In this document: piece by piece, positions 1-40,116 of the stretch
Numbering within the stretch: the stretch's first letter is position 1
Layout of the letters: the number at the start of each line of letters is the position of its first letter
DNA from: a virus
Length of the DNA: 40,116 nucleotides
Strand: one strand, 5' to 3'
Virus genome (UHGV): UHGV-1361477
Program-made: the position numbers and the translations under genes
Notes under the pieces: generated by a model
The model's input: the letters and a program-made list of their open reading frames with translations, nothing else
Database searches by the model: none
Told to the model about the DNA's origin: nothing

Positions 1-105
1 ATTCCAGGTTGCTATCGTGAATGGATATTCACCGCCGAGAGCTTTCTCTTGTAGGGCAGCACGGGAACGCATCACCTGCAAAACCTTCTCTTTTACATCC
101 ATCAT
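1..105 (-). CDS. hypothetical protein, N-terminal part (continues past window start; in frame with ORF at 39961-40116)
   Basis: ATG at 105 overlaps stop of the 102-1316 gene (ATGATGA); open frame runs to position 1 with no stop. Confidence 0.45.
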   Translation of the reverse strand, partial: MMDVKEKVLQVMRSRAALQEKALGGEYPFTIATWN

Positions 106-1316
106 TTCGCCTCCTGTGGCGGTTCTGGTAGCGGCATCCAGTGTGACGGTTTCCACGACGCACCAGGAATTATCCACCCATCATTAGCGTCAGGATGACC
201 CGGGATGTAAGTCGCCCATTTCATTCGCCAGTCACCTTTCCTGTCAAACTCCACGGCAACAAGAACGGCTGTTTTGGTATCCGGCATTCGCTCACTACAG
301 CTTATCCAACCATCCGGAGTTACCGGAGAATTTCCATTTACCAAGTCAGCTCGAACATATAGCGTGTCATCATGGTGCTGATTGTGGCTGCACCACGTTA
401 ATTCGCTTAACTCGCCATCTTCTGGCCATACTCCAGCTGTTTGCAGCCAGATATGGGCTGGCGCATCCTGGCAAGGTGTATTAACTGGAAACTTGTAAGT
501 TTGGCTTACAGGTTGGCTACCCTGAAGCATGGCAGCGTGGCAGGCATACTCAACGCCCTTAACTGCATCTGCGCAGTAGTTATAGCGATTGCATTCCACT
601 AATTTCCGTTTGAGTTTTTCAATTGCCTGCCCGACATCAGCCTGTATTTCCGGAACTGGCGGAACGGCTGTCTGCTGCTCTCGAACGTCATTAGTCGCTA
701 TCGGTTCTGCTGCCAACTGACTGGCATATTTGTTAATGGTAACGATAAGCTCTTGCTCAGCCTCATCCAGACAATCACCGATACCTCGTCTGTCGCCGTC
801 AAAATCATCGAAATCGGCATGAATCTTGGCAACCTTCAGGATTGCGGACAACACCTCACTAGGAATTACCGGATAGTTGGTTGACGTTTCCGCGATTTCC
901 CGAAAATTATTGGTTGACGAATTCTTATTTTCCCGAAAGTTTCCGGACTGAAGCATGGCGGCGCGGCAGGCGTTCCAGCCAGCTGTTCGCCCAAGCGCGT
1001 AAACTTCAGATGGCTCAAGATAATCAATGTCATGCCCGTCCTCATCGTCGTTCTCAGGTAATGCAGCAGGTACTACCGGTACTGGCGGAGCGGCGTAGAC
1101 TTCAATAATCCCATTATCAATAGGCCATTCTCCATCCTTGAGATAGTCACTTGTGCCGTCAACTTGCTGTTCAGCAATGTGGAATGCACCAACTGGCTCT
1201 GCCTCAAGCGAGGCCAGTGCAATCCGTGCCAGTTCCATTTGTTCGCCACGGGTAAGTCCGTTTTCAAGCGGATTTTTAATGAACAATTCAATACGTTCTT
1301 TGGTAATAGTGGTCAT
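102..1316 (-). CDS. early-region protein with C-terminal DUF551-like domain
   Basis: 404 aa ORF; C-terminal WxPxxHWMPLPEPP motif recalled as DUF551; internal protein repeat (CRAAMLQ / CHAAMLQ) matched by DNA repeat near 529-552 and 951-974; stop/start overlap with neighbours. Confidence 0.55.
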   Translation of the reverse strand: MTTITKERIELFIKNPLENGLTRGEQMELARIALASLEAEPVGAFHIAEQQVDGTSDYLKDGEWPIDNGIIEVYAAPPVPVVPAALPENDDEDGHDIDYLEPSEVYALGRTAGWNACRAAMLQSGNFRENKNSSTNNFREIAETSTNYPVIPSEVLSAILKVAKIHADFDDFDGDRRGIGDCLDEAEQELIVTINKYASQLAAEPIATNDVREQQTAVPPVPEIQADVGQAIEKLKRKLVECNRYNYCADAVKGVEYACHAAMLQGSQPVSQTYKFPVNTPCQDAPAHIWLQTAGVWPEDGELSELTWCSHNQHHDDTLYVRADLVNGNSPVTPDGWISCSERMPDTKTAVLVAVEFDRKGDWRMKWATYIPGHPDANDGWIIPGASWKPSHWMPLPEPPQEAK

Positions 1317-1828
1317 GCCGCGTTTCCTTCTTTCTTATTAACAATTACACCGTCATATATTTCATTAAGGTGCCCTCTCAACTCCATACGCCTTAATGCA
1401 GATAACATGTAATCGCATTCAACCTGCTTATTTCCAGTAAATGGCTTATCGTCAGGATTACCCCAACAGCAATTACCCTTGGGCCACCCATGTACTTTCC
1501 GTACTCTTCCGTTAACAACGTGAAGTAATCCCCAGCCAGGTGGTAAATCCTCAACTGAAATAATTCCCGGCTCACTAATAAAGAATCGCCAGTCGCCCAT
1601 TCCAAGAGATGGATTTTTACGAAAACGCTTTTTTCTATCTGCCAACAAGTCAGCACGAGAACACTTCGCCTCTATCAGGCATGATGCTGAATTTCTGAAT
1701 CCCATAGCATCTGGCTGTTCTCCGGTACTGGTTACAGCTATAAAGCGGTCATGAAAACAAACCTTGAACCCATTGCGCTTAAGGAACTTATACGCAATCT
1801 GACAGAGTTCGCGGTGTGTTAACGCCAT
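1313..1828 (-). CDS. PD-(D/E)XK nuclease-like protein (MmcB-like)
   Basis: 172 aa from ATG at 1828 with AAGGAGAG SD; D..E.K spacing in DAMGFRNSASCLIEAKCSRADL resembles PD-(D/E)XK; family assignment from memory only. Confidence 0.4.
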   Translation of the reverse strand: MALTHRELCQIAYKFLKRNGFKVCFHDRFIAVTSTGEQPDAMGFRNSASCLIEAKCSRADLLADRKKRFRKNPSLGMGDWRFFISEPGIISVEDLPPGWGLLHVVNGRVRKVHGWPKGNCCWGNPDDKPFTGNKQVECDYMLSALRRMELRGHLNEIYDGVIVNKKEGNAA

Positions 1829-1829
1829 A

Positions 1830-2025
1830 TCACTCTCCTTTAGTGCGCAAGTGGTTTTTCCAGCGGTTTTGCGCCGCGCTGGGCTTTTTGCAAAAACCAC
1901 AATCCATCATCCCGTAATATTTCATCAACCCCATCCGTCGGTTGCTGAGTCTCACCCACTGCCAGACGCCAGGAGCGTTTCTACGAACTAACAGAATCTT
2001 TGCTTTACGGTTGTTGGTTGCCATA
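1830..2025 (-). CDS. hypothetical small basic protein (65 aa)
   Basis: ATG at 2025 preceded by same AAGGAGAGTGAT SD-junction as the downstream gene; fits exactly between neighbours. Confidence 0.4.
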
Positions 2026-2754
2026 TCACTCTCCTTTGATGCGAATGCCAGCTGCGCTTGCTGATTCTTCATATGCGCGTTTAGCAGCGTTAAGGATTGC
2101 TGCCAGTGGCGTATAGCCGCCATCCATTCGGATTGTGTTGTGGATGCCAGCCATTGTGTCGCGCAATTTGCTGTGGCTAGCAGACAGTTCTGCAATGCGC
2201 TTCTCTGCGGCTTCCAGCTTCTCGCGCATATCGTCAACGTACTCGACCAGAGATCCGCCAGCAGGAATTTCGCATTCCTCGACCAGTTGGAAGTAGATAT
2301 CAGCTGCGGCCCGTGTGTTGCTATGCCTAGCGTCGCCCATCTCACCTTCACGAAGAGCATCGCGTTCGGCGGTAAGATTGGCTATTTTGCTGTCTTTGCC
2401 TTCCAGCTCAACGCGCAGCCTCCCTACCGTTAGCGCAATATCCTCGTTCTCCTGGTCGCGGCGTTTGATGTATTGCTGGTTTCTTTCCCGTTCATCCAGA
2501 AGCGCCAGCACAGTAGCCGGATTGGCTGCGGCGATGAATTCAGCATTGGCCTGCTGTTCTATTTGGAAATCTTCATCGAAACCGCTTTCTGGATGCGCTC
2601 CTTCAATTCTGCAAATGGGAATATATCCAGCAACTTCACGATGAATTAGCGCATCATCACCATCAAATCGGCCCTCTCCATATTCGAGCGACCACTCGCC
2701 ACACGTTGCTTTTTCTGCCTTAGCACGCAGTGCCTGATAGTCAATCTTGCTCAC
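2026..2754 (-). CDS. Ead/Ea22-like early protein
   Basis: GTG start at 2754 with GGGAGA SD; N-terminus VSKIDYQALRAKAEKATCGEW typical of Ea22-type proteins; coiled-coil middle. Confidence 0.55.
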   Translation of the reverse strand: MSKIDYQALRAKAEKATCGEWSLEYGEGRFDGDDALIHREVAGYIPICRIEGAHPESGFDEDFQIEQQANAEFIAAANPATVLALLDERERNQQYIKRRDQENEDIALTVGRLRVELEGKDSKIANLTAERDALREGEMGDARHSNTRAAADIYFQLVEECEIPAGGSLVEYVDDMREKLEAAEKRIAELSASHSKLRDTMAGIHNTIRMDGGYTPLAAILNAAKRAYEESASAAGIRIKGE

Positions 2755-3046
2755 TGGTTGTCTCCCTTGCTGGGCTTTCGAATATATCAAACTCAAACAA
2801 CTTAACCACGTCATCAAACAGGACATAATCGCCATCAGGATCTTCAGTCATGTCAGCGCCACAATCCTGACCGAACGAGTCACAACCATCCATATCAAGC
2901 TCGTATCGCTTCAGGTTTGCGATATTTGATAAATTCAGCGCCAGTACAGCCAGGTCATAAACCTCTTCGGCGGTATACCCTGCGCCATGCCCATACATTT
3001 CAATGCGGGATATGATTTCTTCTACCCGTTGTTTTGTGATCGTCAT
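2741..3046 (-). CDS. hypothetical acidic protein (101 aa)
   Basis: ORF with GGAGG SD; ATGA overlap with upstream gene. Confidence 0.5.
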   Translation of the reverse strand: MTITKQRVEEIISRIEMYGHGAGYTAEEVYDLAVLALNLSNIANLKRYELDMDGCDSFGQDCGADMTEDPDGDYVLFDDVVKLFEFDIFESPARETTSEQD

Positions 3047-3549
3047 TTTTGCTCACCTCCCTGTTCTTCCAGAAAAATACGCATAGCCTCAAGCATCTCT
3101 TCGGTGTCATACGGAGACAGCTTGTCACGCAGGATGTGTTCAATGCTGTTAATGAACTTTCGGATTGCTTTGCGTTCAATTTCAGTCAGGAAAGCATCGG
3201 TGGCTGACATATTTCCTGTTGCCTTCATGGCCTTCAAAATAACCAGAACGCCATCTTGCCCAACCAACTCGGAGATAATCTCAGTGTTGTCGCCAACAAC
3301 ATCACAGAATGCCTGAACAGCTTTACGAGCAAGTGCATTCTCCGCCGCCAGCGCCGCGCACTTGGCCTCAAGGTTATCAATCGTGATTCCAGCAGAACGA
3401 CACTCCCGCAACGCCGTTTCCAGTTTTGATTCAAGTTCACCGAACTTACGGACAAGATATTCAGCGTTTGTTTCGTTAACCTTTAAATCACTTGGGATGC
3501 ATTTACCTTTCAGAAAACCATCCATCTCAATTAGTGACATTTGTTTCAT
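3043..3549 (-). CDS. hypothetical protein (168 aa)
   Basis: ORF; ATGA start/stop coupling at both ends. Confidence 0.55.
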
Positions 3550-3710
3550 TTCTTCCCACTCCGCAACATCGCATTCAGATATTTGTTTTGATTCACTGAT
3601 GGAAAAGAATTTCTCTTAAGCAATTCCTCTCTCGATGGCATTGGCTTTACGCGTTGGCGAATAATCATTTCTGCCGGAAGAATGCCGGGATTGTATGCAA
3701 GTCCTCTCAT
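3546..3710 (-). CDS. hypothetical small protein (54 aa)
   Basis: Below ORF-track cutoff; found by hand; ATGA coupling to both neighbours, fills gap exactly. Confidence 0.4.
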
Positions 3711-3988
3711 GATTTACTCTCCGCGAACTGGTCAACAGCCGTGCTAAGTGATACACCTAAAGTCTCGATATGCTGCTGAATATCCTGTAGTGTCTGCGCC
3801 TGAGATAACAGGATTTCACGGTTGCATAACTCTTTAACCAGATGCTCAAACTTGCTGTAATAGCCGATACGACTTAGTGTTTCTTTGCCTGCATTCTCGC
3901 CTTCTTTGATAATTCCTCTTTCGCTAAGAATCAGATCGTGTTTGGTTCCGGTAATAACGTATTTTCCGAGGTCGATGTTTAGCTTCAT
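3707..3988 (-). CDS. hypothetical protein (93 aa)
   Basis: ORF in operon context. Confidence 0.5.
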
Positions 3989-4004
3989 TGTTAATTACTC
4001 CATG

Positions 4005-4319
4005 TTAATTTATTCGTATGCCTGCTCTTTCTTCATCGAGTTTTTTTAGCTTGTATCGCATAGCTCTTACTGAATAAATTGAGCGGCAGGTTGCAATTGC
4101 TATTTCTTCTGCTGAGAACTTACCGAAAAGTGATACTTCGGCTCTTGTCCATCGTCTTCCACGAAGTCGGCTAACAATGTCAGCGCCAATCCTTGTTGCT
4201 TTCGCCATTACTGCTTTTTCAGTCCTTTCCAGTTTTTCTGCGATAACTTCAACTGGCATTGTCGCCGCCACCTCGCGCAAGAAATCGACTTCCCATTTCT
4301 CCCATGGAGTCTTTTTCAT
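4005..4319 (-). CDS. hypothetical protein, possible DNA-binding (two W-x-x-E-V repeats)
   Basis: 104 aa ORF; internal duplication WEKWEVDFLREV / WTRAEVSLFGKF. Confidence 0.5.
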   Translation of the reverse strand: MKKTPWEKWEVDFLREVAATMPVEVIAEKLERTEKAVMAKATRIGADIVSRLRGRRWTRAEVSLFGKFSAEEIAIATCRSIYSVRAMRYKLKKLDEERAGIRIN

Positions 4320-4330
4320 AGTCGATACCG

Positions 4331-4813
4331 TTATTTGATAAGAAGTGAAGGTTTCCCAACCTTGAGTTGAGCGCCTGGGATATTTATTCCTGCTTTTAGT
4401 TGGTGCTTGATTGCCAACTTGTCGGCTTTAATTGTCGTTTCAAACTCAACGTATTCATGAGGAAGGGCGCTTGAGTCGATGATTTCTACAGTTTCTGACG
4501 GTTTTCTGATTGTTACCTGGTGAATACCTGCTCGAATCTTTTTCTTGCCAACCATTTCAAGCGATGACGCTATATATGATTTGATGCTGTCAATCTTATT
4601 TTGAATTACTGTGGCTCGCTCATTCAGTGACTTTGCCTCTTCCTTGAGGCGTTCGGCATAACCAGATTCATTTTTAATGACGGAAAGAAGTTGCTCTATT
4701 TTATCGGTAAATTCTCCTTCCATGCCTTCTATTGTGTCAGCAATCATCTCTGGTTCTAAATCTGAATCCATCAATTTTGCGTATTCATTGGCAATTTCAT
4801 ACAGTTTGCTCAC
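4331..4813 (-). CDS. Gp157-family protein
   Basis: GTG start at 4813 after GGAGG; N-terminus SKLYEIANEYAKLMD resembles siphovirus Gp157 family, commonly next to recT. Confidence 0.55.
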   Translation of the reverse strand: MSKLYEIANEYAKLMDSDLEPEMIADTIEGMEGEFTDKIEQLLSVIKNESGYAERLKEEAKSLNERATVIQNKIDSIKSYIASSLEMVGKKKIRAGIHQVTIRKPSETVEIIDSSALPHEYVEFETTIKADKLAIKHQLKAGINIPGAQLKVGKPSLLIK

Positions 4814-5699
4814 TGGCAACCTCCAGTTTCGCTTTGCATTCTATGTAAATGGCTTGTACGTTCTGCTGCAATTTCATTCCAGATGTCAGGCGATATGCTT
4901 CTGCAAAATATCGCTTCAAATCATCCATGTTTTCTGCCTGAGCCATTTCATCGCAAAGAAGTTGTGCTTTATCCATTATTTCCTGCTGGCGTTTCCGTTC
5001 ATCTTCGCGGATATCTTCCTCTGATTTGTGCGGCATAACTGGTTCCTGATGCATACCTTCATCTTCGTTAAGCAGGTGAATGGCATTATCCAGTCGCTGG
5101 GCTTTAGGCCAGTATTTGCTGGCGCGTTTAACTATTGTTTTACGCGCCATCTCTTCCCAGAATGTTTTCCACGGTCCATTCTTTGCCTTGCTCGTTGCTT
5201 CCACAGCTTTAATTTCTGCCAGACTCATTTCTTCAGTCAGGTAGTCACCATCTGCTGTTTTAACCGTGCAATAACCTCCAACAATAGAGCCTCGCTCACC
5301 AAATGCGTTGTATTTGTGGGTTGGTGCTGAATCAAGGCCATTTGATTCATAGGTGTCGTTTGAGTACACCAGTTTGCATTGCCCCCACTTAATTGATCCT
5401 GTCGATTGCGCAAGATGAAGTAATCCCATGTAACTGATATCAAGGCACACCATGCCGTCGCGAGGAACCAGATAAGCCAGTTTGCTGGCCGGGTTTAAGG
5501 TGATGCCGATCGCCGCAACATTGATGATGGCGTTCTGTGCGCTGGTTGGATTTGCCAGTGCTGTTTTAGCCAGGTAATCGTTTTTCTGGAAATACTGAAT
5601 TGCAAACTGGCTTTCCTTAGCCCATGTCACCGTCTGTTCAGTCAATGCTCCGCAGAATAACTGCTCTTGCTGTTTAACGAATTCAACGATATTGCTCAT
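4797..5699 (-). CDS. recT: RecT-family single-strand annealing recombinase
   Basis: 300 aa; motif GPWKTFWEEMARKTIVKRASKYWP matches E. coli RecT GPWVTHWEEMAKKTAIRRLFKYLP. Confidence 0.85.
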   Translation of the reverse strand: MSNIVEFVKQQEQLFCGALTEQTVTWAKESQFAIQYFQKNDYLAKTALANPTSAQNAIINVAAIGITLNPASKLAYLVPRDGMVCLDISYMGLLHLAQSTGSIKWGQCKLVYSNDTYESNGLDSAPTHKYNAFGERGSIVGGYCTVKTADGDYLTEEMSLAEIKAVEATSKAKNGPWKTFWEEMARKTIVKRASKYWPKAQRLDNAIHLLNEDEGMHQEPVMPHKSEEDIREDERKRQQEIMDKAQLLCDEMAQAENMDDLKRYFAEAYRLTSGMKLQQNVQAIYIECKAKLEVASEQTV

Positions 5700-6007
5700 G
5701 CAGCTTCTCCATAAATATGTCTGCGTTTGAATATTGCGAAGGCATATTCAGCCTTAACTCTTTCGGTTATTGCATCCCAGAACCATTCATCGGCTTTTTC
5801 CTGATAGTTACAGTCATCATCTTCCAGCCAGTCGATAGCGTCCTTAGTGTGTTCATCTGGTTTATATGAGCGAAGCATTTCGCTTATTGGGTCGCAACGT
5901 TTGCAGAGGCGATCAACTTCACTGTTGATTCGTTCGTAATCTTCATCAGTAAAACTTGCGATTATTTGCGATATTTCACGCTTATCATTCAGAGTCAGAA
6001 TCATCAT
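5696..6007 (-). CDS. hypothetical acidic protein (103 aa)
   Basis: ORF immediately upstream of recT in the operon, overlapping stop/start. Confidence 0.5.
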   Translation of the reverse strand: MMILTLNDKREISQIIASFTDEDYERINSEVDRLCKRCDPISEMLRSYKPDEHTKDAIDWLEDDDCNYQEKADEWFWDAITERVKAEYAFAIFKRRHIYGEAA

Positions 6008-6088
6008 CTTTCTCCTGTTCTTTGTGCTGATTGAGCATTTTGTTCATCTGACGAATGAATTCTTCGTCTGACCATGTATCCGCAATGC

Positions 6089-6253
6089 TCATTGCTTAAC
6101 GACCTTAATCAGTTGAGTTACCTCAATGATGTCCTCGCATAAATCAGAGTACTGAAATGGGCCGCAGTTGTGAGAGTTAGTGCGTCGGGCGAAAGCCATT
6201 CTTCTAAGTTCTTTCAGGGCTTCTTCCAGTTCTTCGTAAGTTGGTTTTTTCAT
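6089..6253 (-). CDS. hypothetical small protein (54 aa), Kil-position
   Basis: Hand-found ORF; ATGA coupling to cIII-like stop (6250-6253) and to a further 35-aa ORF at 5985-6092. Confidence 0.35.
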   Translation of the reverse strand: MKKPTYEELEEALKELRRMAFARRTNSHNCGPFQYSDLCEDIIEVTQLIKVVKQ

Positions 6254-6420
6254 GGCTGTACCTTTTGATTCAGAAACTCAACAAGACGATCCAGCAAGCT
6301 CTTAACGCGAGGTTGTTTAAAGTCTGCTCCGGTTAAAATATTTTTTCGTGAATGCTGCACCGATAAAATCGGGTTGAAAGGGCGAACCGATGCCGCCCCT
6401 GCAATAGCGAACTGTTGCAT
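6250..6420 (-). CDS. cIII: CIII-like protease inhibitor peptide
   Basis: 56 aa from ATG 6420 with GGAG SD; MQQFAIAG N-terminus and SLLDRLVEFLNQ helix resemble lambda CIII (MQYAIAGW...). Confidence 0.6.
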   Translation of the reverse strand: MQQFAIAGAASVRPFNPILSVQHSRKNILTGADFKQPRVKSLLDRLVEFLNQKVQP

Positions 6421-6480
6421 AGGATGCTCCTTCTGTTTGATTGCATAACGAAAACGCCTCGAATGAAGCGTTATTGGTAT

Positions 6481-6510
6481 GCATATAAAAAGGCCCTCAC
6501 ACTGGAGGGC
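6481..6510 (-). terminator. intrinsic terminator (tL-type) on minus strand
   Basis: GCCCTC-cagtgt-GAGGGC hairpin followed by CTTTTTATAT on minus strand. Confidence 0.6.
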
Positions 6511-6616
6511 AAAGAAGATTTCCAATAATCAGAACAAGTCGGCTCCTGTTTAGTTACGAGCGACATTGCTCCGTGTATTCACTCGTTGGAATGAATACAC
6601 AGTGCTTATTCGCAGC

Positions 6617-6943
6617 CTACATAATCATTCCGGTTATTATTACCATTTCAATATCGCTATCTTTCATAATGATTGGAGTTGAGTTATCAACTTTACTTTT
6701 ACTCCATTTTCCTGCATCAGTTTTTACCGCTCCACAATAAGAAAGCCAATCATCATCACAATGTTCTGGATCACTAATTCTGACAAGAACACGTGATAGT
6801 GCTTTTTCGATACTTTCATCACAATTAGCATTTGTGTAATTGCCGTGAGACAATTTCAAATCGTTAACTTCATCTTCATTGGCATCAAAAATATAGATTT
6901 CAGTCGACTCTGGAACATTTTCATAAACCATTAAAACTTTCAT
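6617..6943 (-). CDS. hypothetical acidic protein (108 aa), AT-rich moron-like
   Basis: ORF with GGGG SD; visibly AT-rich codon usage; bracketed by terminators. Confidence 0.6.
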   Translation of the reverse strand: MKVLMVYENVPESTEIYIFDANEDEVNDLKLSHGNYTNANCDESIEKALSRVLVRISDPEHCDDDWLSYCGAVKTDAGKWSKSKVDNSTPIIMKDSDIEMVIITGMIM

Positions 6944-6961
6944 TTTTACCCCATGTTGTTT

Positions 6962-6993
6962 ATGCCAAAAATAAATGCCACCGTCAGGCAGCC
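6962..6993 (-). terminator. candidate intrinsic terminator on minus strand
   Basis: GCUGCC-UGAC-GGUGGC stem (two G.U pairs) followed by AUUUAUUUUUGG; overlaps stop of a 14-codon ORF. Confidence 0.4.
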
Positions 6994-7140
6994 TTGTTGT
7001 AAAGTCGGCGTTTGACTTTCTTGAGCATGGCTCACCTCAATCGTAATAAGCTGGAATTGATTTTCCGCGTTGCTTCTGGCGACCAACACAAGTCACACCC
7101 ATTTCACTGCGTGGCTTGCGGTAGTAAATTAGGTTTGTTC

Positions 7141-7167
7141 AGACAATAAAAAACCCACCGAAGTGGG
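7141..7167 (-). terminator. intrinsic terminator (tL1-like) on minus strand
   Basis: CCCACTTCGGTGGG hairpin directly after TAG stop at 7168-7170, then TTTTTTATT. Confidence 0.7.
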
Positions 7168-7506
7168 CTATGACCATTTTTTATTTGGATTTCGTTGGTG
7201 AGCGTGATTAACAACTCTGTGCATTACATCCTCATATTTTTCATCTTCAATTTTTTCGACATCGCGAGGAAATGGTGTTGCTAATGCTTTGTCAACTTTG
7301 TCCATTGGGTCTTCATTAATCTTATATTCAGGACCATCATCTATAGCATTAAATCCAGGTGTTATACCGTTTTTTAATGCATATGCTATCCTTTTTTCCC
7401 ATCTCGCTATTCTCCTCCTGTCTCGAGATGTAAGACCTCTATCAGATACTTTTCTGTTTTGTCCGCTGTCAGGATTAACATAAATAGTCTTTTTCACCAT
7501 AAGCAT
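7168..7506 (-). CDS. hypothetical basic protein downstream of N
   Basis: ORF; first ATG at 7506, 3 nt after N stop; ORF-track start at 7512 is TTG. Confidence 0.55.
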   Translation of the reverse strand: MLMVKKTIYVNPDSGQNRKVSDRGLTSRDRRRIARWEKRIAYALKNGITPGFNAIDDGPEYKINEDPMDKVDKALATPFPRDVEKIEDEKYEDVMHRVVNHAHQRNPNKKWS

Positions 7507-7508
7507 AC

Positions 7509-7814
7509 TCAATAAGCACCGTACGGTAGTTTACCGTACAATTTTATTTTTTGGACTGCATGTATTTTGTTTCCTAATGGGTTTGAATCTTTGTAATAAA
7601 TACTTCTATTTTTTCGAACGACTTCTTCTTTCTTCTTGCAGCAAAGGATTCCTAGTGATGCTGCTTTGTCTGCTTTGACGCAACCAGAGAGCTTTAGCGC
7701 AATTTTTCGCGCCAGTGCTTCATTACTGCGTCGCTCGGCAATAAGTTCTGCTCTGCGAGCTTTGTAGCGGCTTTTTGCCGTACCTTTGGATTCTTTCCAG
7801 ACAATGGTTACCAT
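7509..7814 (-). CDS. N: antitermination protein N (phage 21 / P22 gp24-like arginine-rich motif)
   Basis: ATG 7814 after AAAGGAG; N-terminal GTAKSRYKARRAELIAERR resembles P22 gp24 GNAKTRRHERRRKLAIER; first gene after pL and nutL. Confidence 0.75.
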   Translation of the reverse strand: MVTIVWKESKGTAKSRYKARRAELIAERRSNEALARKIALKLSGCVKADKAASLGILCCKKKEEVVRKNRSIYYKDSNPLGNKIHAVQKIKLYGKLPYGAY

Positions 7815-7924
7815 GATGGTCTCCTTTAAGTGGCTTTGGCGCATGACGCGTCGAGGTGCTTATCTTCTCGATCGCTGTCTTGCAGCTGCAATTCGCGCCA
7901 TCCCCAAAACCACTCAAGTTCTGG

Positions 7925-7965
7925 TCTCAACGGTTAGGTTGAGAGTCCGTCGATGTTAAAGAGCC
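7925..7965 (-). promoter_or_regulatory. nutL (boxA GCTCTTTAAC + boxB hairpin)
   Basis: On minus strand GCTCTTTAACATCGACGGAC then TCTCAAC-CTAACC-GTTGAGA; same boxA and loop as nutR at 9053-9092. Confidence 0.6.
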
Positions 7966-8010
7966 TGCCAATCTGTTCCGTTTGGCTTCCAGCGTCCTGC
8001 TGATGGCTTA

Positions 8011-8779: not shown

Positions 8780-8781
8780 AG

Positions 8782-8846: not shown

Positions 8847-8859
8847 TCGGAGCGAGTCT

Positions 8860-31521: not shown

Positions 31522-33365
31522 TGAAAGTAACTGCAAACGGTAAGACATTTACCTTCCCTGATGGTACGAGCACGGAAGATATTGGCACCGCCATTGATGA
31601 GTATTTTGCTGGTCAGGCTGTTCAGCAACAAACAGTTAATCAGGCCAATAATGAACCAGCACGTGAAGAACCATCATTGATGCAACAAGCTGGCGATTGG
31701 CTCACAGGTGCTCAAAGTGCAGGGCAAATTGCAGAACAGGCTGGTCGTGGTCTGGTAAACATACCATTTGACGTATTGCAGGGTGGCGCAAGTCTGATTA
31801 ATGCAATCAGCCAGGGGCTTGGTGGCCCCAAGGTTTTGGATGATGTTTATCGCCCTGTCGATCGACCGACAGACCCTTATGCGCAAGCTGGAGAAACAAT
31901 TGGCGGGTATTTAGTTCCAGGAGTTGGAACGGCAGGAAGCATGGCTATTGGATCACTGGCAGAAGCCGCAAACCAGAAAGGTGATTTCGCGCAAAATGCA
32001 GCCATAAATGCCGGAGTTAACCTTGCCGCTCAGGGTGTTCTTTCCGCAGCAGCAAAGGGAATAGGGCGTGGAATAACGGCTATAAAAGGCGATATCGCGC
32101 CAGAAGTAGCGAAAAAAATTGCCACCTCAGAATCAATGGGTGTGACGCCAATGACATCTGATGTCATCCCACCGAAAAATGCTTTCACTCGTGGCCTTAC
32201 TCAGGATGCCGAGGGGGCTTTGCTCGGGACAGGCTCAAAGCGAGCTGAGCAATATGCAACGCGTAGTAAGCTGGTAAGTAATTATTTTGACCGTTTTGGT
32301 GAGTACAACCCTGATGATGTGGTGAAATCTCTGACCACCACGTTAAGGGGGCGGAAGGATGCCGCTGGCGCTGTTATCAATGACGTCACCAATAAAATGG
32401 GTAATGCCTCAGTTGATACCACAAATACCATGAATGCTCTGAATACAGCGATCGCAAGACAGGAACGGCTTGGGACATCTGCCAATCAAAGCCTGCTTAC
32501 ATCCTTGCGTAACCTACGTGAAGAATTAGCAAACCCTGCAACTGATTTGGATGTTACGTTTGATCTCTTGCGTCAGCACAGAACAGCATTTAGATCTAAT
32601 GTTCAGGGAGATGCTATGGTCTTCCCCAACCAGGCAAAAGCAGCTACCAATATGGTAGAGAATGCAATGTCAAAAGACCTTCGTAACGCAGTTGCTAAAA
32701 ACCTCGGTGCATCAGACGCAGCAAAATACCTTAAAGCAAATTCCGATTATGCAAACGTTTATAATAAGGTGCTTAATAAAAACATTGCTAACAAGCTCAA
32801 CAAGGCAAGCAGTGAAGCCAGTCCTGAACTTATAAATACCGTTGTATTAAGCAGAAAACCATCTGACGTGAAACGAATCTGGAGCGCATTGGATGATAAA
32901 GGGAAAGATGCTATGCGTGCAGCTTACGTCAGCAAAATAGCGGAAAAATCCGGTGACTCTCCAGCCAAGTTCATCACTGAAGTTAATAAGCTGAAATCTC
33001 AGTCAGGCGGTGAAATTTACAACACTATTTTTTCTGGAAAGCACATGAAAGAGCTTGATGCTCTTCATGAAGTTCTACAGCAAACAGCAAGGTCAGACAC
33101 CGCAAATGTAGTAACTCAGACGGGGCAATCGCAAGCCAACAGGATAAGGACGATTGGCGCAACTGCGACTCTTGGCGTATCAATGGGGCTTGAGGCTGGT
33201 TTCGGTGCAATGATGCGCTTGTATGAGTCCAAAGCAGCAAGGAATGCTCTCTTACGTTTGGCAAACACCAAAGCAGGAACGCCAGCCTATGAAAGAGCGC
33301 TAAATAATGCTGCAAATGCGATACGCCCTATACTTTCAAGCCAAATTACAGCAGAACAGCAATAA
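31518..33365 (+). CDS. ejection protein, gp16-like
   Basis: 615 aa; size and position as P22 gp16. Confidence 0.6.
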
Positions 33366-33379
33366 AAGATAAGATATAA

Positions 33380-33865
33380 CTACCTGATATTACTGCTACT
33401 GTTGCATGTTACCGTGTTTCCAAATCCTGAATTGCAGTTTGTATATGTGTCAACGCGTGTTGGGTAAGGTTGAGTTATAACAGGCTGGCGCGCTTTTTGC
33501 TCGATCGCTTGCATTGTGTTTACAGCCTGATAATTCAATAAAGCCTGCTGGAATGCTTGGCTTTGCGCTATTTGTTGGGCTTGTTCTTGGCTTTGTAATT
33601 GAACATAAAGATTCTGAAGTTCAAGTCTTGCCTGTGTGTCACTTATCTTGCCTTCATCGACACCTTGCCCGAGCATCTTCGCAGCAAGGACATACAGCTT
33701 AGGTGTTGGTGCTGATGCCATGCGAGAGTCGTTCTTCAAGCTGGCATCAAGGCAATTAGCCATATCGCTAAGCTTTGGATAGCGTTGCTCGCAACTTGCC
33801 TGATAGTCGCTTACTTTTGCGCACCCAGCCAGCAGAAGCGGGATAATTAACAGTGATTTTTTCAT
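33380..33865 (-). CDS. lipoprotein (signal peptide + lipobox LLAGC), candidate superinfection-exclusion moron
   Basis: 161 aa from ATG 33865 with AAGGAGAG SD; MKKSLLIIPLLLAGC; Q-rich coiled coil; at P22 sieA position. Confidence 0.7.
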   Translation of the reverse strand: MKKSLLIIPLLLAGCAKVSDYQASCEQRYPKLSDMANCLDASLKNDSRMASAPTPKLYVLAAKMLGQGVDEGKISDTQARLELQNLYVQLQSQEQAQQIAQSQAFQQALLNYQAVNTMQAIEQKARQPVITQPYPTRVDTYTNCNSGFGNTVTCNSSSNIR

Positions 33866-33899
33866 ATAATTAACTCTCCTTAGTTTTGCGCAGGATACC

Positions 33900-34265
33900 A
33901 TGAAAAAAGTTAACATTGGAAACGTACCAAAGATGCTAGTACCGCTCTTTGAGAGCGGTACAATTGTGTTTTGTAGAGACTTTCCAGAATGGCAACGCCT
34001 GCATCAAAAACTTGGCGTTGACGTGCATGACTCGGACGCCAACGGAGCGTCTCATACAATGAGTAGCGAGAATGGTGTTTTGCATGTGATAGGCGTGTTC
34101 AATGGCAAACTATCTACTATTGCCCATGAGTGCGCTCACATGGCATTCGATATCTGCTCAAGGGTCGGTGTTGATGTTGAACCAGGAAGAGCCAACGAGA
34201 CTTACTGCTACTTAATGAGCAGGCTTGTTGAGTTCTGCGAGCGACATATCAAAAAGCCGGAGTGA
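33900..34265 (+). CDS. hypothetical protein with HEXXH motif (putative small zinc-metallopeptidase-like)
   Basis: 121 aa filling the gap between neighbours exactly; HECAH motif with acidic residues about 20 aa downstream. Confidence 0.5.
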   Translation: MKKVNIGNVPKMLVPLFESGTIVFCRDFPEWQRLHQKLGVDVHDSDANGASHTMSSENGVLHVIGVFNGKLSTIAHECAHMAFDICSRVGVDVEPGRANETYCYLMSRLVEFCERHIKKPE

Positions 34266-34272
34266 TCCGGCT
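34252..34272. terminator. bidirectional terminator hairpin between convergent genes
   Basis: AGCCGGA-gtga-TCCGGCT; on minus strand followed by TTTTTG. Confidence 0.5.
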
Positions 34273-34278
34273 TGATTA

Positions 34279-34458
34279 TTACTTTTTGCTGTCTGGAGTT
34301 CGCTTATCTAATACCCAGCCATGACCTGGCTTTGTTGTTGGTGGAAGCCTTTCGTTGTCCTTGACGGTGGCAAAATTGTCTTTCTTACCGCCGCGCGGGC
34401 CAACTTCTTGGTATATTCCGCCGTTTTTTCCTGTGTTTTCACCTGGTTTTTTCGCCAT
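34279..34458 (-). CDS. YjzC-like small protein
   Basis: 59 aa from ATG 34458 with GAGG SD; GIYQEVGPRGG...LPPTTKPGHGW pattern recalled as YjzC-like family. Confidence 0.45.
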   Translation of the reverse strand: MAKKPGENTGKNGGIYQEVGPRGGKKDNFATVKDNERLPPTTKPGHGWVLDKRTPDSKK

Positions 34459-34548
34459 GATATACCTCAACATACACCCGTTATTGGGCGATTAAATATT
34501 GATCTCATTTTATAAGTAGTCAATATGGCCCAGGTAAATGCAAAAATT

Positions 34549-34572
34549 AACCCACCGTCAGGTGGGTTTTTT
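34549..34572. terminator. hairpin with T-runs on both sides overlapping mnt stop
   Basis: ACCCACC-gtca-GGTGGGT followed by TTTTTTG on plus strand. Confidence 0.45.
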
Positions 34573-34809
34573 GTACAAATCCTTCAGCGTATCAAACACC
34601 ATCTTCTTAACAAGTTCGGACTGCTCATCAGCGATGCGTTCCGCATCGTCTCGATAGCCTGAAATTTTGGATGGCTTTGATACAGCATCAGTAACTATCT
34701 GAACTAATTCTGAATTAAGAGAGCGGCCATTGGATTTGGCTCGCTGTTTTAGTTTTTCCTTTAATTCGTAAGGTAGCCGCAGATTAAATTGCGGGTCATC
34801 TCTTCCCAT
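34558..34809 (-). CDS. mnt: Mnt repressor (ribbon-helix-helix, Arc/Mnt family)
   Basis: 83 aa MGRDDPQFNLRLPYELKEKLKQRAKSNGRSLNSEL...KKMVFDTLKDLYKKPT matches P22 Mnt by recall. Confidence 0.85.
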   Translation of the reverse strand: MGRDDPQFNLRLPYELKEKLKQRAKSNGRSLNSELVQIVTDAVSKPSKISGYRDDAERIADEQSELVKKMVFDTLKDLYKKPT

Positions 34810-34872
34810 TCTTGATGCCTCGCTTTTGTGAGTGGATCGGCATCTTATTATCTGCTGGTTGCATCCTCAATA

Positions 34873-34887
34873 AGACCACAGTGGTCT
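34873..34887. promoter_or_regulatory. Mnt operator-like palindrome
   Basis: Perfect palindrome AGACCACAGTGGTCT; compare P22 Omnt AGGTCCACGGTGGACCT (recalled). Confidence 0.6.
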
Positions 34888-34955
34888 CTTTGTTTGATTA
34901 ATAATGCATCACTGTGGCAATGCTGCGGCGATTCCTTGTATCTGGAGCAAATTAA

Positions 34956-36392
34956 ATGACAGACATTACAGCCAATGTTGTAGTCAGCATGCCTTCGCAA
35001 CTCTTCACTATGGCTCGTTCTTTTAAAGCCGTAGCTAATGGAAAGATTTATATCGGTAAAATTGACACTGACCCAGTAAATCCTGAAAACCAGATTCAGG
35101 TTTATGTAGAGAACGAAGACGGCTCTCATGTTCCCGTTTCGCAACCAATCATCATTAACGCCGCTGGTTACCCTGTATATAACGGACAGATTGCCAAATT
35201 CGTAACTGAGCAAGGCCATTCTATGGCTGTTTATGATGCGTATGGTGCACAGCAGTTCAAATTCCCAAATGTGCTGAAGTATGACCCGGATCAGTTAAGA
35301 GTAGTTTTGACTGGACAGTCTGGTGATGGACTTAAGAATTTTTATGCTGGCTCAGGATGGACTGGTTCAGATGCAGCTGGTGACAATATTTATAACAATG
35401 AAACTATCATATATAAAAATGCTACACGACAGAGATTCTCCATACCAGAAACACCAATTCCAGATCCCATTATTTGGCTGGAAAAAATTAGTTCTGCAAC
35501 TAGGGATGACGGCATCAAACGATGGGATCAGGGGGTAATTTATAACTCTTTGCGCAAGGTGTCAGGAAGTGCATATACATGCACAACTACAAGTGTTGCT
35601 AAGCATGAGGGAGGGAATGGGCATTCAATTGGTCACCACATGCGTGGAGAATCAAGAAATCCGCAAGCCGAAACATGGGGGGGGTGGTCATATGGTGCAG
35701 TATTAGGAGATGCAGTGCAGAATGGAGCGATTAGCACTATTGCACATGAATTTAATCTGAATAATCGAGGTCCCGATAAAGGATGGATGGAGAATGCACT
35801 GCAAGGATCTGTAAGAGGGTTGGTATGTGTAACTCAGGATAAAAGCAATCCAGTAACACAGATGATTACCATCGGAAGAGGGAGTGAAGCTCCAAATGGT
35901 TATATCTGGACAGGAATGTTGTTTAGAGGTAATTCTATTTCCACTCCAACAGAGGAACTAACCGAGGTAGGTAATGGCGAATACATCAGACTTGAGGGAT
36001 CTCTATCATCTGGAGCTGCAAACGGCATTAGATTTAGAACAAATTATTTTAGGAGTGGAATTTCATTTTCTGAAGCTAGATTTTCAAACAACTGCGCAAT
36101 TTTGATGGGCGACAATCAACGAATTACGGTAGGAACGGGCCCGGCAAATACAACACATTTGAGTTTCAACAGGGCTGAGAACTGGGCTAACTTCAACAAC
36201 TTAAGAATACGACTTAATGGCAATCAAGTTATTTCAGAGAGGAGGACGGGATGGGGATCGCCAACCGGCACCGTATCCCGAGCAGCATTTAACTCTGGAA
36301 CAATAACTCACGAAGATTTAGCAAAGGTAGTTGCAGCATTAATTCAGGACTTACATGCTTCAACCGGGCATGGATTAATTGGTTTAACTTAA
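34956..36392 (+). CDS. tailspike / receptor-binding protein with P22-like N-terminal head-binding domain
   Basis: 478 aa; first about 115 aa ([17 protein letters not shown]...LKYDPDQL) match P22 gp9 N-terminus; remainder unrelated and shorter than known tailspikes. Confidence 0.8.
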
Positions 36393-36404
36393 CAGGACAA
36401 TAAA

Positions 36405-36590
36405 ATGGATAAGCAAACTATTCAAAATATCATGCAGTTTATGCTTCGCGTAAATCTTAGCGGTCATGAAGTTCCTGCTTTTAATTCTTCAATGAATGCA
36501 TTACAGGCTGAATTAGATCGCGAAAATGACCAGCCACTCCAGCGAGTACTAAATGCTGCTCACAATGAACCTGTTACGGAGAATGATTAA
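36405..36590 (+). CDS. hypothetical small protein (61 aa)
   Basis: ORF with AGGA SD immediately after tailspike. Confidence 0.45.
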   Translation: MDKQTIQNIMQFMLRVNLSGHEVPAFNSSMNALQAELDRENDQPLQRVLNAAHNEPVTEND

Positions 36591-36591
36591 A

Positions 36592-36798
36592 ATGAAAACA
36601 GAAAGCGGTGCTTTCAAATTTGACGGTGGAGAGGTTAAAGGAATTAACAGCATTGCCATTATTGAGGTGCGCGGTAACGGGTGGGGCGCTGGTTTTTATT
36701 TTAAGCCAAATACTGCCGTTAAAGTCGATGGTAATAAGCCTGATCTGAACGAGTTTCGTGATTCCTGCGCATTGTCGGTAATGACTCCAACTTACTGA
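36592..36798 (+). CDS. hypothetical small protein, 3' end runs into IS1 terminal repeat
   Basis: 68 aa; last 7 codons are encoded by the IS1-end fragment starting at 36777. Confidence 0.45.
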
Positions 36799-36905
36799 TA
36801 GTGTTTTATATTCAGATAATGCCCGATGACTTTGTCATGCAGCTCCACCGATTTTGAGAACGACAGCGACTTCCGTCCCAGCCGTGCACCAGGCTGGTTC
36901 AGAAT
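36777..36905. mobile_element. IS1 terminal fragment (about 125 bp of one end, remainder absent)
   Basis: GGTAATGACTCCAACTTACTGATAGTGTTTTAT...CCGTCCCAGCCGTGC matches recalled IS1 inverted-repeat end; match is lost after about 36905. Confidence 0.6.
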
Positions 36906-37329
36906 CATGTTCTGCTGATTTTGTCCGGCGGCAGAACGCAATTTGCCAGAGTGATGGGAAGGGCATTAATCACGGATGATGGTGAAGCGATCGAAGTGGA
37001 GGCGGCGGAAGAGGTGGAGGTGATGTGGCGTGTTACGTACTTCATCAACAGCGCGCTGCAGGATGGCGTGGTGGTGTGATGGGTGGCATTACCCCACCTT
37101 TTCATCAATCCAGTCCGCCCACCACTGCAGCATGTCTCTGCATTTATCGTAGTTGATGCATCACTATCACCCTGTAATGGCTTATTACTGGTTTGCATAC
37201 AGGTAGGCATGAACAGATACCTACACATGAAGATGGAACTAGTCCGGATGCGATATTTTTGGTGATCACGTACATCATCAACGAAGCGCGTTATGTTGAG
37301 TTTTATGACTGCCAAGTAATGTGAAAATT

Positions 37330-37637
37330 GCGATGCGTACCAAATTGTGTACCAAATTAAAATCATAAACCATGAAACCCTTACTCATGGCTGTTCTCAG
37401 GCTGGGTGCGTGTAATCGTGAAAGAGGAAGGTAGGTTGTTTATCTGTGTCTGTCATTGTCTAGCATTGTCCACTGTAGTTAATTAACTGTCTGTTATAAC
37501 TCGAAAAACAACCATTTTTTCACCTGAGTATGTCTACGAACGTCAAATATAGTTGTTTACTGTGCGCTGTTGTCCATGTGATATTGTGTACCAGATGTGT
37601 ACCAAACTATTATTTCTGAGCGTACCAAATATTATTT
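37330..37637. promoter_or_regulatory. putative attP region with arm-type repeat motifs
   Basis: GTACCAAA repeated (37334-37357 twice; 37586-37606 twice; 37620-37630) and CATTGTC repeats at 37452-37470; upstream of int. Confidence 0.4.
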
Positions 37638-38816
37638 ATGGCTATAAGCGACACAAAACTGCGTACTATTTATGGTAAACCATATTCGGGCCCACAAGAA
37701 GTGGCTGATGCCGATGGCCTCAGCGTACGAATTTCACCGAAGGGGGTCATCCAGTTCCAGTACCGCTATCGCTGGCATGGCAAGCCTAATCGACTTGGGC
37801 TTGGTCGATACCCATCCCTGTCTTTGAAGGATGCCAGACAGATCACTGCTGACTTGCGAAAGCTCTATTTCTCAGGAACGGATCCACGCACCTATTTTGA
37901 AGAGAAGGTGGAGAACTCCATGACGGTCGCCCAGTGTCTCGACTACTGGTTCGACAACTACGTCTCTACAACTCTCAGAGAAAAGACCCAGGCACTTTAC
38001 CGATCAACGGTTATGAAGCGCATGCATGACGCCTTTCCTAATCGTCCGGCATCTTCTATCACGGTTAAGCAATGGGTTGACCTGCTTACCGAAGAAGAAA
38101 GAGATAATCCACGCCGAGCAAGGCAGGTGCTAAGTCAACTAAGATCAGCAATAAGTTGGTGCATGCGGCGTCAGTTGATAGATAGTTGCGCAATTATGAG
38201 CATCCAACCAAGGGACTTCGGCTCCCGCGCTGAGGTAGGGGATCGGGTACTGTCGTATCACGAACTGGCTAAGATTTGGCTTGCTATTGAAAGAAGCCGT
38301 GCGTCTACGTCAAATAAGCTCCTTCATCAGATGCTTATGCTGTGGGGGGCGAGGCTCTCAGAGCTTAGGCTGGCAACAAAGACAGAATTTGACCTGCTGG
38401 ACAACGTATGGACCGTACCGAAAGAGCATAGCAAGATGGGTAATGTTATCCGCCGTCCAATCTTCGAACAAATTAAGCCTTTTCTCGAAAAAGCCATGAC
38501 AACGTACAATGATGTTCTTTTCCCTGGAGAAGACATAAACAAACCGATCAGCATCGCTGCAGCCAACCGATTCGTAAATAGAATAAGGGGAGGGATGGAT
38601 CTGGGTTACTGGCGAACACATGATTTCAGAAGAACGCTTGTTACACGTCTGTCCGAGATGAATGTCGAGCCTCATGTTACTGAGCGAATGCTCGGTCATG
38701 AACTTGGCGGGATAATGTCAGTATACAATAAACACGACTGGATAGAGGCTCAGCGCAAAGCGTATGAGCTTCACGCTGATAAATTGTTCTGGCACATCAG
38801 GAGCATTTCTGATTAA
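37638..38816 (+). CDS. int: tyrosine integrase (phage integrase family, P4-like arm-binding N-terminus)
   Basis: 392 aa; catalytic signature HDFRRT...LGH...VYNKHD; N-terminal arm-binding domain. Confidence 0.9.
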   Translation: MAISDTKLRTIYGKPYSGPQEVADADGLSVRISPKGVIQFQYRYRWHGKPNRLGLGRYPSLSLKDARQITADLRKLYFSGTDPRTYFEEKVENSMTVAQCLDYWFDNYVSTTLREKTQALYRSTVMKRMHDAFPNRPASSITVKQWVDLLTEEERDNPRRARQVLSQLRSAISWCMRRQLIDSCAIMSIQPRDFGSRAEVGDRVLSYHELAKIWLAIERSRASTSNKLLHQMLMLWGARLSELRLATKTEFDLLDNVWTVPKEHSKMGNVIRRPIFEQIKPFLEKAMTTYNDVLFPGEDINKPISIAAANRFVNRIRGGMDLGYWRTHDFRRTLVTRLSEMNVEPHVTERMLGHELGGIMSVYNKHDWIEAQRKAYELHADKLFWHIRSISD

Positions 38817-38988
38817 CGCCACCGTTAAGAATCCACCCTTCAACAGCTTCACGAAGGTATGATTTGGGGTGGGTTCTGACTGGCTTCGGAAATCCGTGTC
38901 GTTTGGTATAGTTCCAGATTGTCTGACGTGATGAAACACCGAGCTTGTTCATCACTTCTTTCTCAGGAATCAGGCTGGTATCGGTCAT
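38797..38988 (-). CDS. AlpA/Xis-like HTH protein (putative excisionase)
   Basis: 63 aa; VMNKLGVSSRQTIWNYTKRHGFPKPV typical of AlpA/excisionase HTH; converges on int. Confidence 0.6.
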   Translation of the reverse strand: MTDTSLIPEKEVMNKLGVSSRQTIWNYTKRHGFPKPVRTHPKSYLREAVEGWILNGGVNQKCS

Positions 38989-39001
38989 CTTAATTCTCCA
39001 G

Positions 39002-39028
39002 GCAAAAAGAAACCGCCATATAGCGGCT
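39002..39028 (-). terminator. weak candidate terminator on minus strand
   Basis: CCGC-tatatg-GCGG hairpin followed by TTTCTTTTT on minus strand. Confidence 0.3.
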
Positions 39029-39065
39029 CTATCAGATATGTACAGGCCTCATCGAGTGTGAGGCG

Positions 39066-39410
39066 TTAGTCCTTGCGTAGCTCGCTGATTCTTCTGTAAG
39101 TCTCTGGTGCTTTGTTTCCGTGTATCTTCATTTCAGACTTCAACAGAGCAACGAGGGAATCCCATTCGTTGAGGATGCCTTTGAATGCCGGAACGCGCTT
39201 TGCAACCTTGTCGAATGAATCTCTGATTTCTGGAATCTGCTCAACAAGCGCAACGCATCGTTGGAAATCGGCTGCGTCATGTGGAGCGCCGAAGTGATGA
39301 CCATAGATATTCTTTTTCAGTCCACATGCGATTGAGGCAAGAGTTGCGCTACTGATGCCGACATCGCCAGTTGATTGCCATTTCAAAACCTTCATAGCCA
39401 AATCTGACAT
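39066..39410 (-). CDS. hypothetical protein (114 aa)
   Basis: ATG 39410 with GGAG SD just downstream of terminator 39425-39450. Confidence 0.5.
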   Translation of the reverse strand: MSDLAMKVLKWQSTGDVGISSATLASIACGLKKNIYGHHFGAPHDAADFQRCVALVEQIPEIRDSFDKVAKRVPAFKGILNEWDSLVALLKSEMKIHGNKAPETYRRISELRKD

Positions 39411-39420
39411 TTCTTGTCTC

Positions 39421-39444
39421 CAATAAAAAACCGCCATCAGGCGG
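39421..39444 (-). terminator. intrinsic terminator on minus strand
   Basis: CCGCCTGATGGCGG hairpin followed by TTTTTTATTG on minus strand. Confidence 0.6.
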
Positions 39445-39604
39445 ATTGGTGTTCTTTCAGTTCTTCAATTCGAATATTGGTTACTTCTGCATGTGCTATC
39501 TGCGCCCATATCATCCAGTGGTTATAGCAGTCGTTGATGTCCTCTGCTTCGATAACTCTGTTGAATGGTTCTCCATTCCATTCACCTGTAACTCGGAAGT
39601 GCAT
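39437..39604 (-). CDS. hypothetical small protein (55 aa)
   Basis: Hand-found ORF MHFRVTGEWNGEPF...; GGAG SD; stop lies inside the terminator stem. Confidence 0.4.
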   Translation of the reverse strand: MHFRVTGEWNGEPFNRVIEAEDINDCYNHWMIWAQIAHAEVTNIRIEELKEHQSA

Positions 39605-39676
39605 TTATCATCTCCATAAAACAAAACCCGCCGTAGCGAGTTCAGATAAAAGAAATCCCCGCGAGTGCGAGGATTG

Positions 39677-39961
39677 TTATTCAGTGACGATATTTACCTT
39701 TATCGCGTATACCTTAACCGGATTCTCTCCAAAGTGCGGATGTGTAATTGTCTTTATTTCATACCCTTCATACGGGACGTCAATTCTGCGGCTGGAATCG
39801 TCGCGCTTCGGATATCCCTTCGTGATAATCAGGCGGTCATACTCCCGGAACATAATTCGCTTATTCCAATAGTCATTACACAGGCGATACTCTTCCGTTT
39901 TCTCCCCGCGAATCATGGCATCGAAGTATTCACCTTTGACGGCAAGTTGTAGGTTAGCCAT
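39677..39961 (-). CDS. ASCH/DUF3850-like small protein
   Basis: 94 aa from ATG 39961; LAVKGEYFDAMIRGEKTEEYR pattern resembles ASCH-type beta-barrel proteins. Confidence 0.4.
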   Translation of the reverse strand: MANLQLAVKGEYFDAMIRGEKTEEYRLCNDYWNKRIMFREYDRLIITKGYPKRDDSSRRIDVPYEGYEIKTITHPHFGENPVKVYAIKVNIVTE

Positions 39962-40116
39962 TACCGCACCTCCAGCCTCCATACCGCCTGACCAATCCGG
40001 CTGGCATAGGTATCTTTAGATACTGTTCCGTCTTTAGCAATCTCCATAAGAATTTTGCGCAAATCTGCCGAACGCCATTCTTCATCAGGAAATTCCTTCT
40101 CCATTGCCAACCGCAA
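39961..40116 (-). CDS. hypothetical protein, C-terminal part (start lies beyond window end; in frame with 1-105)
   Basis: Open minus-strand frame from window end to TAA at 39961-39963, overlapping next ATG. Confidence 0.45.
   Translation of the reverse strand: MRLAMEKEFPDEEWRSADLRKILMEIAKDGTVSKDTYASRIGQAVWRLEVR

Follow-up and report, generated by a model that had tools for sequence, protein, structure and literature searches.

UHGV-1361477 is very probably the complete, circle-assembled genome of a temperate P22-like Escherichia coli phage, opened inside the eaa gene

Introduction

In P22-like phages, DNA is packaged by the headful mechanism, starting at a pac site within the small-terminase gene (PMC8022706), and their virion DNA is permuted and terminally redundant, for which a circular assembly is expected (PMC8022706, PMC10345575). 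The Salmonella phage L is an example with the same terminase family as the phage described here, in that its permuted and redundant virion DNA corresponds to a circular sequence with an arbitrary start (PMC8022706). The gene sbcB, on the other hand, is a documented integration site of lambdoid (Stx2c) prophages (PMC8309913). The present study deals with the virus genome UHGV-1361477, a stretch of 40,116 nt without any N (positions 1-40116, hereafter the window), both ends of which lie inside eaa, a small gene of the early-left operon. The window very probably represents the complete genome of a temperate P22-like podophage of E. coli in a single, unintegrated copy, which was assembled as a circle and was opened at an arbitrary point within eaa; since this arbitrary breakpoint falls within a gene, the two ends join in frame. 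While the permutation of phage L was verified by restriction analysis, the window is known from sequence alone.

The closest described systems are the Escherichia and Shigella P22-like phages HK620, Sf6, Gally, N7, E212, phiv205-1 and Kapi1 (Lederbergvirus), which share with the window the same gene order round the circle and the same virion module. Their maps are collinear with it after a rotation of about 19.7 kb, as reference records of P22-like phages open at the terminase gene or int, whereas the window opens inside eaa. As compared by megablast with about 50,700 phage records, the window is a mosaic sharing 94-98% nucleotide identity in segments with these seven phages, and its relatives among the megablast matches measure 38.3-47.3 kb, a range that includes its own 40.1 kb. 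The coverage of each half of the window by any one deposited phage record is at most about 59%, so that the window is a new mosaic combination. Judged by its genes alone, the phage is assigned to the podophages of Lederbergvirus type.

The two ends and the eaa gene

The first-pass annotation had described a minus-strand open reading frame (ORF) that begins at 105 and is cut by the left edge, and another that ends at 39961-39963 and is cut by the right edge, both of which were found on reading the ends. At the left end, an ATG (105-103) followed by a second ATG (102-100) opens a frame of 35 codons that continues down to base 1, while at the right end a frame of 51 codons runs from 40116 to the TAA stop at 39963-39961. 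Translation across the join (40116 to 1) gives, as had been proposed, a single ORF of 86 codons in the same frame (MMDVKEKVLQ...AVWRLEVR*). Two open frames join in phase with a chance of 1/3, and the in-frame join taken alone is thus weak evidence that needs independent support. It gains significance because the joined product is shown by independent evidence to be a conserved gene.

The joined protein matches phrog_2814 over its whole length (positions 1-86 of 86, E 3.7e-51) in the PHROG scan, and a search of 5.8 billion proteins retrieved 94 clusters of homologues, which are mostly 86-88 aa long at 100% coverage and come from Escherichia, Salmonella, Klebsiella, Enterobacter and Raoultella, where the source annotations call them 'eaa protein'. 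This name derives from the source annotations only, and Eaa has no family in Pfam or NCBIfam. In an alignment of 29 sequences, the motif ATWN|LRLAME is conserved and bridges the join between residues 35 and 36. The joined ORF is therefore a real conserved gene, eaa, whose 5' part (1..105, minus strand) holds codons 1-35 with the ATG at 105-103 and whose 3' part (39961..40116, minus strand) holds codons 36-86 and the stop.

The neighbours of eaa fit closely on both sides of the join. Directly upstream, a DUF551-containing early-left gene (102..1316, minus strand) overlaps the eaa start by 4 nt (ATGA), and directly downstream, the eaa stop overlaps (TAATG) an ASCH-domain gene (39677..39961, minus strand; phrog_625). 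Both overlaps are identical to the annotated arrangement in E. coli PEC41. The exact DUF551 protein also occurs on the metagenomic contig scaffold_103 of the European Nucleotide Archive (ENA), where it adjoins an intact eaa gene.

The structure of Eaa was modelled with AlphaFold on a homologue of 97% identity, using the 29-sequence alignment, and forms one compact winged-helix domain (pLDDT 94, pTM 0.83) with the order H1-b-H2-H3-b-b, where the join position falls within helix 2. A Foldseek search with this model returned fold-level winged-helix matches, including RosR, the DNA-binding domain of Fur, BlaI/MecI and PapI/PefI (TM 0.6-0.7, E > 0.01). The prediction that Eaa is a stand-alone protein of the winged-helix type is thus of high confidence, and its fold makes a role in the early-left operon as a small DNA-binding protein probable.

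Continuity across the join in other DNA

An artificial query, in which 1500 bases from the right end of the window precede 1500 from its left end (join at 1500/1501), was aligned with other DNA. It matches the chromosome of E. coli PEC41 with 96.8% identity over junction bases 1-1642 and that of the O145:H28 strain RM12581 with 94.4% identity over bases 986-1835, both ungapped over the join. An exact 41-mer spanning the join occurs once in IMG/VR, in a contig that aligns without a gap across it, and is absent from the GTDB representative genomes.

Further assemblies of the same phage were retrieved by exact-protein look-up, two of which bridge the join. The ENA contig scaffold_103 (locus L010; metagenome sample SAMN10275363) aligns over 14,064 nt with 2 mismatches and 0 gaps (99.986%) and spans 37369..40116 followed by 1..11316, while the ENA contig NODE_84 (locus L018; 31,654 bp, ERZ652405) is 100% identical over 15,949 nt without a gap and spans 24956..40116 followed by 1..788. 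The stretch from 1 to 40116 is given by the window itself and that from 40116 back to 1 by the two contigs, so that the circle is closed without loss or gain of a base. In both contigs, the DNA beyond each edge of the window is its other end with the frame kept, and not bacterial chromosome, as the first-pass annotation had anticipated.

These alignments bear on the reading of the join as an assembly artefact, i.e., a linear contig or a false circularisation through a repeat. An artefact would be compatible with a join that has one chance in three of being in frame, and with the lack of a terminal overlap in the window. However, the gene formed by the join belongs over its full length to a conserved family, unbroken DNA runs over the join in both E. 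coli chromosomes, in the IMG/VR contig and in the two further assemblies of this phage, and the gene order over the join is that of other P22-like phages. The window holds no direct repeats of at least 40 nt, and no internal repeat able to cause a wrong join. An artefact is thus regarded as highly improbable.

The attachment site and integration at sbcB

The integration module lies downstream of the tailspike gene (34956-36392, plus strand) and not at an end of the window, in agreement with the first-pass annotation. It comprises a gene for a tyrosine integrase of the sbcB-site type with an arm-DNA-binding domain (int; 37638..38816, plus strand; phrog_1), which contains PF13356 and the catalytic domain PF00589, and an excisionase or AlpA-like helix-turn-helix gene (xis; 38797..38988, minus strand; phrog_66) with a weak match to PF05930. 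The int gene shares 98.7-99.6% nucleotide identity with the int genes adjoining sbcB in four chromosomes. To its left is attP (37335..37629, plus strand), the core of which is flanked by repeats of the arm-type sequence KYGTACCARA, with two copies in the P arm (37335 and 37347) and three in the P' arm (37586, 37597 and 37620). Five copies in the same orientation within 37335-37629 compare with about 0.5 expected in the whole window, and none of 100 shuffles reached five (0/100); by their sequence and arrangement, these repeats are candidate arm-type sites of the integrase.

The core was located by a four-way alignment of attB (K-12), attL (FDAARGOS_1337), the attP of the window and attR (LD39-1, beside dacD). 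The flanks switch exactly at a segment of 12 nt, GTAATCGTGAAA (37412-37423), which is the sole stretch identical in all four sites and is identified as the attP core, or crossover segment. Integrated prophages beside sbcB (PEC41, RM12581, FDAARGOS_1337 and A10) match the window from 37412 rightward only, as attL does, while the free phage E212 matches from 37192 and continues through the att site. A query of 37192-37470 was searched against 5,426 complete E. coli genomes, where the top match covers only 37192-37440 (attR), and the other matches listed cover either the 37192-37440 part (attR) or the 37412-37470 part (attL); a full-length attP is found in none of the 25 matches listed. Where the tailspike arm is present in draft genomes (99.4% identity), the match stops at 37440 and is followed by dacD-sbmC-yeeA, which is the integrated form. 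By these sequence comparisons, the attP carried by the window is the unrecombined one.

The core lies in an imperfect copy of codons 7-16 of sbcB, and the sbcB-like stretch matches the host copy at 25 of 29 positions. On the P' side of attP, 45 nt (37412..37456, minus strand) form a phage-borne replacement for the 5' end of sbcB, encoding the substitute SbcB N-terminus MTDTDKQPTFLFHDY as against MMNDGKQQSTFLFHDY in K-12. The phage version is one codon shorter, and the coding sequence of sbcB is accordingly annotated with 1425 nt in lysogens as against 1428 nt in K-12. Since the P' side supplies a substitute start, the exonuclease I frame remains intact at attL in lysogens, with an upstream region supplied by the phage. 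An interpretation of these 45 nt as host flank was considered and rejected, as the four-way alignment identifies the stretch as the attP core region.

An alternative in which the window would be one integrated prophage with unnoticed short host flanks was weighed against the same data. It could draw on the resemblance of 37412-37456 to the start of sbcB and on the presence of an IS1 fragment. However, the sbcB-like stretch lies between phage arms rather than at an end and differs from the host copy, the IS1 remnant belongs to the phage arm in many prophages, and both ends of the window fall within one and the same phage gene. No host genes were detected in the window by PHROG and Pfam scans, no tRNA genes by a tRNA scan and no matches to Rfam, and no duplicated segment is present. 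The statement of the first-pass annotation that the sequence is not a single prophage with host flanks therefore holds, and this explanation is the least probable of those considered here. As there is neither a tRNA nor an Rfam match, attP is not based on a tRNA gene.

A further reading takes the window as one unit sliced from a tandem lysogen (double or multiple) at sbcB, where head-to-tail copies are joined by an attP-like junction. Such an array would equally show attP intact and the ends joining in frame, its sequence alone would be the same as that of a circle, and single integrated relatives at sbcB do exist. However, the slice would have to equal one unit to the base without redundancy, which a whole circular record fits far better. 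Moreover, the attP matches listed for the 5,426 complete E. coli genomes are only of the attR or attL type, no place covers at least 80% of the tailspike-attP-int region, and NODE_84 runs unbroken through attP. Little credence is therefore given to a tandem lysogen.

The integration module itself links the window to the lambdoid prophages that integrate at sbcB (the Stx2c phages 1717 and 2851, and the prophages of PEC41 and RM12581), which contain the same int, xis and P' arm at 97-99.6% nucleotide identity, the same core in the 5' end of sbcB and the same ASCH-eaa-DUF551 block. These elements are long-tailed Stx-type prophages or remnants bounded by attL and attR, whereas the window is a P22-like podophage genome with attP, which lies beside an IntS remnant. 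The int gene and the P arm of attP are also shared with phage E212. In PEC41, the prophage adjacent to sbcB (locus L001, 5022-14242) consists of int, xis, ea genes, RecT, kil, cIII and DUF2528 followed directly by a tailspike gene, and appears to be a deleted remnant without immunity, replication, lysis and head genes.

Packaging and the origin of the circle

The large terminase subunit (20136..21548, plus strand) is of the Sf6 gp2 type, its residues 1-470 matching PDB 4idh with 1087 bits as well as 4iee and 4ife, and is essentially Sf6 gp2. The small terminase subunit (TerS; 19699..20139, plus strand; phrog_309) differs from Sf6 gp1 in its N-terminal part. As the large subunit (TerL) is a headful-type terminase, a circular assembly is expected, and by analogy with its relatives the present phage probably packages its DNA by the headful mechanism. 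The ends of the window are located inside eaa at about 20 kb from terS; lying so far from terS and within a gene, they represent an arbitrary cut and not physical ends. The exact TerS sequence is extremely common in E. coli prophages (15,653 index blocks).

The expected course of events may be outlined as follows. The phage would replicate to concatemers, like P22, Sf6 and HK620, and packaging by its headful terminase would begin at pac, within the gene of the small subunit. The resulting virion DNAs would be linear molecules with terminal redundancy and circular permutation. An endless circle would be assembled from reads of such molecules, or of a replicating or excised circle. In lysogeny, recombination by the integrase would take place between the core of attP (37412-37423) and the sbcB 5' end in the host, where the P' side would bring the substitute start that leaves the gene intact, and the tailspike-attP-int region would be split by integration into attR (tailspike...dacD) and attL (sbcB-int...). 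The source DNA is inferred to have been virion, replicative or excised DNA rather than a tandem array.

With the join bridged in scaffold_103 and NODE_84, attP unrecombined and a terminase of the headful type, the view of the first-pass annotation that the sequence is a circularly closed or permuted phage genome is supported. Several points weigh against it, or at least against its details. NODE_84, being 100% identical, could share its source sample with the window, and the clearly independent assembly is scaffold_103 only, with its 2 mismatches. A direct overlap of at least 8 nt between the two ends, which would directly mark a circular assembly, is lacking in the window and was possibly trimmed, and the circular topology is deduced from sequence comparison. 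TerS resembles Sf6 gp1 in the C-terminal 37 aa only, presumably the tail interacting with TerL, and this mosaic of TerS with TerL implies, at the level of sequence, a pac recognition domain that would be different from that of Sf6. Finally, scaffold_103 ends at window position 37369, which is 43 nt left of the attP core; this end may reflect a branch of the assembly graph from a mixture of integrated and free phage in that sample, although its position is not exactly at the core.

For headful phages, the joining of the ends is itself routine and ordinary, and the recognition of the window as an entire, intact genome of a temperate phage, rather than a fragment or a flanked prophage, is mainly of value for bookkeeping. 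Gene calls should wrap over the ends, giving eaa as one gene of 86 codons instead of two partial ORFs, and the coordinates could restart at terS for comparison with other phages. The integration site is fixed as the 5' end of sbcB with the core GTAATCGTGAAA. The window also adds one more mosaic, in which a virion module of the Sf6/HK620 type is combined with an integration module otherwise known in Stx2c-type lambdoid prophages and E212. Current understanding is not changed by these findings.

Gene content

Each module is present once in the window, as found by PHROG and Pfam scans. The early-left operon on the minus strand wraps through the ends and contains xis, small ea genes, the ASCH gene, eaa, the DUF551 gene, Ea22-like genes, a Gam-like gene, RecT and N. 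It is followed by the immunity and replication genes cI, cII, O and a DnaB-type P, and then by the nin region with Ant/Roi and by Q. The lambdoid character of this early region (N, cI, cro, cII, O/P, nin, Q and the lysis cassette) is supported by the Pfam labels on the identical region in scaffold_103. The lysis genes encode a holin, an endolysin and Rz. The packaging and head genes encode TerS, TerL, portal, scaffold and coat proteins, and the tail and ejection genes encode gp4, gp10, the needle, a gp14-like protein and three ejection proteins, beyond which lie the Arc/Mnt region and the tailspike gene. The virion module is of the P22 type and in P22 order (PHROGs 156, 648, 283, 637, 578, 1219/1030, 651, 598, 917 and 770), and identical sets of virion genes with P22-specific Pfam families are found in NODE_84 (locus L018) and in locus L011.

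In the Arc/Mnt region, a gene at 34558-34809 (minus strand) encodes an Arc/Mnt-type ribbon-helix-helix repressor of 83 aa, whose best PHROG is phrog_795, labelled 'partition protein ATPase'. The protein matches the Pfam families PF03869 and PF11423 (Arc/Mnt) and is annotated as Arc family, and the label of phrog_795 is thus misleading for this ribbon-helix-helix protein.

This match is nevertheless relevant to the suggestion that the window is a stably kept circular episome (phage-plasmid) rather than an integrating phage, with which a circle-like sequence holding a full set of phage genes would agree as well. However, the 'partition' match is to the Arc/Mnt repressor, the PHROG scans of the window revealed no partition or plasmid-replication genes, and the int-xis-attP module is complete, with relatives carrying the same arms being integrated at sbcB. 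A phage-plasmid is thus hardly credible. Taken together, a natural tandem polylysogen at sbcB or a persistent extrachromosomal circular P22-like phage as the source of the window has a small probability; either, if true, would be an unusual lifestyle for the P22-like group.

Remnants beside attP

Just left of attP, the window contains the 3' end of an IntS-type integrase gene (37089..37149, minus strand), of which about the last 20 codons and the stop are left (..QWWADWIDEKVG*). Homology to the argW/IntS prophage of E. coli EF5-18-41 stops at 37149, and homology to phage E212 starts at 37192. Between attP and the small ORFs distal to the tailspike gene, there is also a remnant of IS1 (~36777..36915). 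The IntS and IS1 remnants are the scar of an earlier exchange, in which an integration module of the argW/IntS type was replaced. The IS1 remnant is kept in related prophages, as a gene call of 38 aa with PF03400 occurs at the same place in loci L011 and L013, and it matches thousands of places in E. coli genomes by BLAST.

The tailspike

The tailspike (34956..36392, plus strand) is short (478 aa) and comprises a P22 head-binding domain, which extends from residue 1 to about residue 120, and a rare C-terminal receptor-binding module, by which the window differs from P22-like phages. The N-terminus matches PF09008 over its full length (1-113 of 113, E 3.6e-65), and residues 1-120 match the tailspikes of Sf6 and P22. 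Residues ~121-478 (nt ~35316-36392) have no match in Pfam, PHROGs or PDB sequences, and an AlphaFold model of the tailspike from a 13-sequence alignment reached a pLDDT of 38.5. Among 5.8 billion proteins, the C-terminal module is found in only 15 clusters, fused to N-termini of PF09008 or PF18668, and it possibly represents a glycan-binding or depolymerase module not characterised so far.

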